A model generated the notes under the pieces. The model was not told the DNA's origin and ran no database searches. It saw only the letters and a list, made by a program, of their open reading frames with translations. Shown piece by piece: positions 55,983 through 55,990 of a stretch of DNA of 64,000 bases. The stretch is from NCBI RefSeq assembly GCF_988242995.1, contig NZ_OZ547043.1; one strand, given 5' to 3'. The first letter of the stretch is position 1. Each line of letters starts with the position of its first letter. Made by a program: the position numbers and the translations under genes.

Positions 55983-55990
<8 letters not shown>
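55460..55990 (+). CDS. kefF: Glutathione-regulated K+ efflux system ancillary protein KefF (flavodoxin-like quinone oxidoreductase)
   Basis: 176-aa [53 protein letters not shown]... Confidence 0.9.

Follow-up and report, generated by a model that had tools for sequence, protein, structure and literature searches.

Short stop/start overlaps at five gene junctions in a 64-kb segment of the Escherichia coli chromosome, two with and three without a Shine-Dalgarno site

[quoted passage not shown] It is likely, in our assessment, that all five are ordinary operon overlaps, of which two (kefF/kefC and fixC/fixX) combine a Shine-Dalgarno site with functional partners, and three (ileS/lspA, surA/pdxA and pdxA/rsmA) join unrelated genes without such a site and would serve at most for low-efficiency re-initiation. 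The junctions are short stop/start overlaps of the usual kind within the well-known operons ribF-ileS-lspA-fkpB-ispH, fixABCX, kefFC and lptD-surA-pdxA-rsmA-apaG-apaH; the class to which they belong is very well described, and the observation is already known.

The gene order in the window is creD, arcA, thrLABC, dnaKJ, nhaAR, ileS-lspA, carAB, caiTABCDE, fixABCX, kefFC, folA and surA, and a 4-kb probe taken from it has a match in 5,425 of 5,426 complete E. coli genomes, with identities of 95-99% in most and 99.7% in the best. The gene table was derived from the RefSeq annotation of the closest genome, and the start, the stop and the open frame were verified for every CDS in the window. By direct reading and by comparison with this table, all five overlaps listed in the earlier note lie exactly where it had placed them (Table 1), and the same five are annotated both in the closest genome and in K-12 MG1655 (RefSeq). 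Over the stretch from -45 to +20 nt around each junction, the sequence equals that of K-12 save for a single substitution in fixC and another in kefF, the latter being synonymous (GCA for GCC). In the literature, the genes at these junctions are handled as single operons. A truncated surA, suggested by a 293-aa entry in the list of open reading frames, was rejected, as the frame merely leaves the window.

Table 1. Overlapping junctions, flanking genes and Shine-Dalgarno sites in the window.
Feature	Position	Strand	Description	Source
ileS/lspA junction TGATG	33435..33439	+	1-nt overlap at 33437; ileS stop TGA 33435-33437, lspA ATG 33437-33439; no Shine-Dalgarno	
ileS	30621..33437	+	938 aa	RefSeq annotation, gene table
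lspA	33437..33931	+	164 aa	RefSeq annotation, gene table, start-site check
fixC/fixX junction ATGA	53675..53678	+	4-nt overlap; fixX ATG 53675-53677, fixC TGA 53676-53678	
fixC	52392..53678	+	428 aa	RefSeq annotation, gene table
fixX	53675..53962	+	95 aa	RefSeq annotation, gene table, start-site check
AGGAG Shine-Dalgarno for fixX	53660..53664	+	within fixC, 10 nt 5' of ATG	
kefF/kefC junction ATGGATAG	55983..55990	+	8-nt overlap; kefC start ATG 55983-55985, kefF stop TAG 55988-55990	
kefF	55460..55990	+	176 aa, ancillary subunit of KefC	RefSeq annotation, gene table
kefC	55983..57845	+	620 aa, glutathione-gated K+/H+ antiporter	RefSeq annotation, gene table
GGAGG Shine-Dalgarno for kefC	55972..55976	+	within kefF CDS, 6 nt 5' of ATG	
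pdxA/rsmA junction ATGA (minus-strand reading)	62076..62079	-	4-nt overlap; rsmA ATG 62079-62077, pdxA TGA 62078-62076; no Shine-Dalgarno	
rsmA (ksgA)	61258..62079	-	273 aa	RefSeq annotation, gene table, start-site check
pdxA	62076..63065	-	329 aa	RefSeq annotation, gene table, start-site check
surA/pdxA junction TAATG (minus-strand reading)	63063..63067	-	1-nt overlap at 63065; pdxA ATG 63065-63063, surA TAA 63067-63065; no Shine-Dalgarno	
surA, 3' part	63065..64000	-	gene continues past window end; frame intact	

Two further regions of the window are of note. At 14470-15183 on the minus strand lies a 237-aa gene whose counterpart at the same position in K-12 is yaaW; the label 'msyB, acidic protein MsyB' given in the RefSeq annotation of NZ_CP158426.1 therefore looks wrong. 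Between nhaR and rpsT, positions 22136-28560 form a strain-variable island with a four-gene chaperone-usher fimbrial operon and espX1, an annotated type III effector gene, and K-12 carries different content there (IS1).

Across the whole window, 16 start codons overlap any of the 57 stop codons at offsets that the genetic code permits. Five of these are the reported ones, which open frames of 95, 164, 273, 329 and 620 codons, all encoding conserved proteins, and the other 11 open frames of only 3-48 codons. Since starts that overlap a stop by chance lead into frames of such short length, all five are real gene junctions and not chance ORFs. The code itself leaves little room for overlaps this short. 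One frame relation can be realised as TRATG (1 nt) or NTGA (4 nt). The other admits neither 2 nt, as no stop codon has the first two bases of a start codon at its end, nor 5 nt, which would require a stop beginning with G, and its shortest form is 8 nt. An overlap of 3 or 6 nt would place the stop in the downstream frame. That spacings of -1, -4 and -8 alone occur would follow, by our own reasoning, from how few such overlaps the code permits. All five junctions match the TRATG, NTGA or NTGNNTRR overlap classes of co-directional genes, and the same spacings, -4, -1 and -8, are listed as the enriched ones in the review by Brown & Wade (PMC12548453).

Although the overlaps had been presented as a series, they are not enriched compared with the published share for E. 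coli: 5 of the 43 same-strand neighbour pairs in the window overlap (11.6%), these five alone, where the figure for E. coli ORF pairs is put at about 15% (PMC5318159). Spacings within -8 to +10 nt are found for 12 of the 43 pairs; Huber et al. (2023; PMC10666635) counted 820 E. coli pairs in this range and 1,630 with spacers above +20 nt. Seven pairs besides the overlapping ones are 0 to +7 nt apart, namely thrA/thrB, thrB/thrC, fkpB/ispH, rsmA/apaG, caiD/caiE, apaG/apaH and yaaY/ribF. The junctions of thrA/thrB, thrB/thrC, fkpB/ispH and rsmA/apaG (6626-6628, 7560-7561, 34468-34470 and 61255-61258, respectively), with spacings of 0 to +2 nt, fall within the range thought to permit coupling and were absent from the earlier note.

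The overlaps constrain the choice of start site, as had been proposed. For lspA, fixX, rsmA and pdxA, an in-frame stop 3-35 codons upstream is followed by no start codon before the annotated ATG. The kefC gene of E. coli has two in-frame alternative starts upstream; its Klebsiella and Erwinia counterparts have stops in the same frame 9 and 19 codons before the start, and only the conserved ATG/GTG remains. It is scarcely credible that some downstream starts are mis-annotated and that the true starts lie farther downstream, leaving no genuine overlap. In-frame GTG codons do occur 6-24 codons downstream in fixX, pdxA, lspA and rsmA; however, the position of the annotated ATG as the first possible start in these same four genes speaks against their use, and the N-termini are conserved from residue 1 across genera, as MNNRVHQGH in RsmA, MD(S/N)H in KefC, MS..(I/L)(C/S)STGLRW in LspA, and MTSPVNVDVKLG / MSSPVNVDVKLG in FixX. 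Furthermore, in Buttiauxella and Erwinia the kefC start is a GTG in place of ATG at exactly the same codon.

The five junctions split into two classes by their Shine-Dalgarno sites, assessed here as the duplex energy between the 3' end of 16S rRNA and the 20 nt upstream of each start. Strong duplexes are formed before kefC (-10.3 kcal/mol) and fixX (-8.8 kcal/mol), and the site is effectively absent before lspA (-0.9 kcal/mol), rsmA (+0.6 kcal/mol) and pdxA (-1.9 kcal/mol). Local RNA structure adds little to this division: folds of 105 nt around the starts show no extra stability over shuffled sequence (z = -1.0, +1.3, -0.5, -2.0 and +0.5), with the pdxA/rsmA junction (z = -2.0) as a weak exception. 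The GGAGG of kefC is partly paired in the predicted fold, which is not more stable than that of shuffled sequence. Such predicted folds would neither support nor exclude a model in which coupling proceeds by RNA unfolding.

Functional relationships follow the same division. The protein pairs had all been described as functionally linked, which stands for KefF/KefC, plausibly extends to FixC/FixX, and fails for the remaining three. To our knowledge, there is no functional link between isoleucyl-tRNA synthetase and signal peptidase II, nor do we know of one between SurA and PdxA or between PdxA and the 16S rRNA dimethyltransferase RsmA. KefF is an ancillary subunit that binds and activates KefC (PMC10224563). 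For FixC and FixX, a link is plausible from their place in one operon and electron-transfer module, and from the paralogue ydiST. Subunits of complexes are 4.5-fold enriched among gene pairs spaced at -8 to +10 nt (PMC10666635).

Ribosome profiling, which the earlier note had named as a way to check for coupling, shows no matched translation in the published K-12 data, the downstream gene being translated at about one-fifth of the upstream one in the two pairs covered, ileS/lspA and surA/pdxA (the table is without kefF, kefC, fixC, fixX and rsmA). The translation efficiency, ribosome density and mRNA level are 1.097, 581 and 530 for ileS, 0.185, 94 and 509 for lspA, 0.965, 357 and 370 for surA, and 0.198, 30 and 152 for pdxA (PMC5318159 supplementary file 1). 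From these values, the downstream/upstream ratios of translation efficiency are 0.17 for lspA/ileS and 0.21 for pdxA/surA. The mRNA of lspA equals that of ileS at a ribosome density 6-fold lower, and the mRNA of pdxA is 2.4-fold below that of surA. In the same table, thrA/thrB and fkpB/ispH, with a good downstream Shine-Dalgarno site, have ratios of 0.65 and 1.04, and thrB/thrC, with a weak one (-3.3 kcal/mol), has a ratio of 1.9. Unequal efficiency rules out equal output for ileS/lspA and surA/pdxA, but not low-efficiency coupling. Genome-wide, overlapping and non-overlapping pairs vary alike in relative translation, with no significant difference (p = 0.06; PMC5318159).

A stop/start overlap does not by itself demonstrate coupling, and the reading given in the earlier note, although reasonable as one possibility, goes too far. 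At the five pairs, translational coupling is plausible by analogy with other gene pairs. Coupling requires an overlap or a very short spacer (PMC10666635) and is most efficient between -4 and +3 (PMC12548453), and all five spacings lie inside the re-initiation range of about -8 to +10 nt (PMC10666635). Among native E. coli pairs at -4, four of five tested were tightly coupled, and the Shine-Dalgarno site contributed to varying degrees, from indispensable to not at all (PMC6728339). The literature searched yielded no coupling experiment on any of the five pairs.

Comparison with relatives shows that close spacing is conserved at the level of the family to the order and that the exact geometry is labile. 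The -8 spacing of kefF/kefC, with the motif NTGGATAR, is found in six of seven other taxa (Klebsiella, Buttiauxella, Erwinia, Rouxiella, Serratia and one close metagenomic relative), and a GGAGG-like site before kefC is kept in most of these -8 taxa (Enterobacterales); in a Pseudomonas, the spacing is +1. The E. coli paralogue kefG/kefB likewise places the ancillary-subunit gene first, overlaps, and has GGAGG 6 nt before the ATG. Unlike kefF/kefC, it uses a 1-nt TGATG and not an 8-nt overlap, so that the frame relation has changed and the close spacing has been retained. A 308-aa protein (P0012; PF00999 and PF02525) contains a KefF-like domain and the start of a KefC-type Na_H_Exchanger domain, and may be a frameshift or a gene-call fusion over the kefF/kefC overlap. 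The ATGA of fixC/fixX, together with a Shine-Dalgarno site, occurs in E. coli, in Proteus and in the E. coli paralogue ydiS/ydiT, in which an oxidoreductase gene is likewise followed by a ferredoxin-like gene; on rhizobial symbiosis plasmids the spacings are +12, +12 and +31. The ileS and lspA genes overlap by 1 nt in Enterobacter and Xenorhabdus and by 4 nt in Edwardsiella, and are 13 nt apart in Serratia fonticola.

The two minus-strand junctions were followed through a scan for PdxA with one genome per species, which gave 80 Enterobacteriaceae loci, and spacings were obtained by explicit finding of starts and stops. From pdxA to rsmA the spacing is -4 in 70 of the 80 and -8 in 10; the genes are never separated, and a Shine-Dalgarno site is never present. 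The change from -4 to -8 is due to the loss of a single base close to the 3' end of pdxA (CCCAATGA to CCAATGAATAA) in the Citrobacter freundii group and Kluyvera (loci L011-L019 and L083), with the N-terminus of RsmA unaltered. From surA to pdxA the spacing is -1 in 59 loci, -8 in 7, 0 in 4 and +95 to +125 in 10, the last mostly from Klebsiella and Raoultella. In nine of the Klebsiella/Raoultella loci (L042, L044, L045, L047, L053, L060, L071, L081 and L084, at about 1880-2000), this spacer contains a GC-rich hairpin, in K. michiganensis with the sequence cgccccggtctctgacgggggcg. Such a spacer offers a natural comparison for whether the surA/pdxA overlap matters.

More distant taxa were reached through pieces of chromosome filed as plasmids in PLSDB. 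The spacings from surA to pdxA and from pdxA to rsmA are -11 and -8 in Proteus, -1 and -11 in Aeromonas, +13 and -4 in Alteromonas, and -1 and about +230 in Halomonas; Acinetobacter has no surA upstream and a spacing of +23 from pdxA to rsmA, and in Pasteurella, which is without pdxA, rsmA lies 102 nt after a prolyl isomerase gene. Where it is separated from the upstream gene, rsmA is likewise without a Shine-Dalgarno site, and such a start therefore does not require an overlap. The missing site was accordingly rejected as proof of re-initiation at rsmA, being missing as well across the 23-102 nt gaps of Acinetobacter and Pasteurella. As to the records themselves, NZ_OL790812.1, NZ_AP026896.1, NZ_CP040452.1, CP125156.1 and others in PLSDB measure 1.8-5.4 Mb and carry the core genes rsmA, pdxA and fixX; they are evidently chromosomes, or pieces of them, mislabelled as plasmids.

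Within the reading that we favour, that of ordinary operon overlaps in two classes, the ribosome ending the upstream gene would sit on or beside the downstream start codon, where it could either re-initiate or clear the way for a new initiation, both amounting to translational coupling; this step rests on the spacing and on what has been published for other pairs of genes. At kefF/kefC and fixC/fixX, the Shine-Dalgarno site embedded in the upstream gene would allow efficient initiation, coupled and/or independent, with a roughly matched output to be expected. Initiation at these two junctions is probably efficient and possibly matched. At ileS/lspA, surA/pdxA and pdxA/rsmA, the overlaps would be at most low-efficiency re-initiation points, which would step expression down and hand on no more than about one-fifth of the upstream translation.

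The overlaps could instead have arisen neutrally, from the packing of genes and from small mutations close to gene ends, each downstream gene initiating independently and no coupling having been selected. By this account, kefC and fixX would start by way of their own Shine-Dalgarno sites, and lspA, pdxA and rsmA through unstructured A/U-rich leaders. The ease with which the geometry shifts between relatives agrees with such an origin: a single base turns -4 into -8 at pdxA/rsmA in the Citrobacter freundii group, the surA/pdxA spacing takes the values -1, 0, -8, -11, +13 and +95 to +125, and the overlap has been lost without apparent harm at surA/pdxA in Klebsiella/Raoultella, at fixC/fixX in rhizobia and at kefF/kefC in a Pseudomonas. 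Likewise, three of the five pairs join genes of unrelated function, the two genes of ileS/lspA and of surA/pdxA differ 5-6-fold in translation, rsmA does without a Shine-Dalgarno site even if non-overlapping, and genome-wide the translation-efficiency ratios show no significant difference between overlapping and non-overlapping pairs (p = 0.06; PMC5318159). However, pdxA and rsmA are never separated in 80 Enterobacteriaceae species, Proteus, Aeromonas and Alteromonas, the -8 motif of kefF/kefC is kept across an order, both paralogue pairs retain overlaps, and the native -4 pairs tested in E. coli were mostly tightly coupled (PMC6728339). We hold a neutral origin to be unlikely.

Internal promoters in the upstream genes might also drive the downstream genes, in which case the junctions would lie near the 5' ends of separate transcripts and coupling would be irrelevant. 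Older work by Roa et al. in 1989, Pease et al. in 2002 and Miller et al. in 1987 is said to describe internal promoters for ksgA (in pdxA) and lsp (in ileS), and the 2.4-fold lower mRNA of pdxA than of surA implies uneven transcript levels along that operon. However, the mRNA levels of ileS and lspA are equal (530 versus 509), both genes passed the filter of PMC5318159 against internal promoters and terminators, and the literature treats the genes at these junctions as single operons. A consensus promoter scan, itself weak evidence, places no sigma-70-like site in the right orientation immediately before a junction, and in the consensus promoter and terminator scans around the junctions the hits are at or below shuffled expectation. 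An explanation by internal promoters is therefore considered improbable. A separate idea, which we regard as very improbable, is that the rsmA (ksgA) start is an obligate re-initiation start through which the methylation state of 16S rRNA feeds back on RsmA synthesis. RsmA methylates A1518/A1519, beside the anti-Shine-Dalgarno end of 16S rRNA, and in all sampled genomes of Enterobacterales, Aeromonas and Alteromonas rsmA is without a Shine-Dalgarno site and overlaps pdxA. Obligate re-initiation would make RsmA synthesis dependent on terminating 70S ribosomes and not on free 30S subunits; if true, it would explain how the autogenous translational control of ksgA, reportedly described in 1989, is brought about.

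Similar junctions are known from several systems, and the overlap of pdxA and ksgA was reportedly the very subject of the 1989 paper by Roa et al. In sequence, conservation and public expression data, nothing distinguishes the five junctions. The overlap of kefFC is mentioned in a review. The -4/-1/-8 overlap class (Huber et al. 2019, 2023; Brown & Wade 2025) has the same three spacings between co-directional operon genes, and its typical trait, a complex partner together with an intragenic Shine-Dalgarno site, is shared by two of the five junctions. The E. coli pairs tested within that class (hyfHI, astDB, ydbH/ynbE, menDH and bioBF) include none of the five in the window. Compared with the class, three of the five window pairs are without a Shine-Dalgarno site and have unrelated functions, and in ileS/lspA and surA/pdxA, the pairs for which values exist, translation efficiency falls about 5-fold from the upstream to the downstream gene instead of being matched. 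In the case of trpB-trpA, trpE-trpD and galT-galK in E. coli, a stop/start overlap or near-overlap within one operon is likewise read as coupling (PMC6728339, PMC5318159); these pairs differ in that they serve one pathway or one enzyme and that coupling was shown by polar nonsense mutations, and only kefFC and fixCX are comparable in function.

Another type of shared sequence is present in the window itself. A copy of IS1397, a member of the IS3 family (1,431 bp, 58559-59989), lies between folA and apaH; it interrupts a REP palindromic unit in its loop, with a 3-bp duplication (GGT) on either side, and in the closest genome the site is unoccupied. Its transposase lies on the minus strand as orfA/orfB, with an A AAA AAC slippery run near 59441-59435, a frameshift-type overlap that was not listed in the earlier note. 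Like the five junctions, orfA and orfB of the IS3 family are two ORFs that share sequence on one mRNA; unlike them, they rely on programmed -1 frameshifting, in which the slippery A AAA AAC fuses the frames, and not on a stop/start arrangement.

A stop/start overlap proves neither coupled or stoichiometric expression nor a functional link, and caution is warranted in reading it as such: in the window, only two of the five overlapping pairs are functionally related, and in the two pairs with measurements, translation of the downstream gene is about 5-fold less efficient than that of the upstream one. The finding matters little beyond the quality of annotation, where the start codons of lspA, fixX, kefC, rsmA and pdxA are confirmed by the overlaps and the genes so joined are marked as operon partners.
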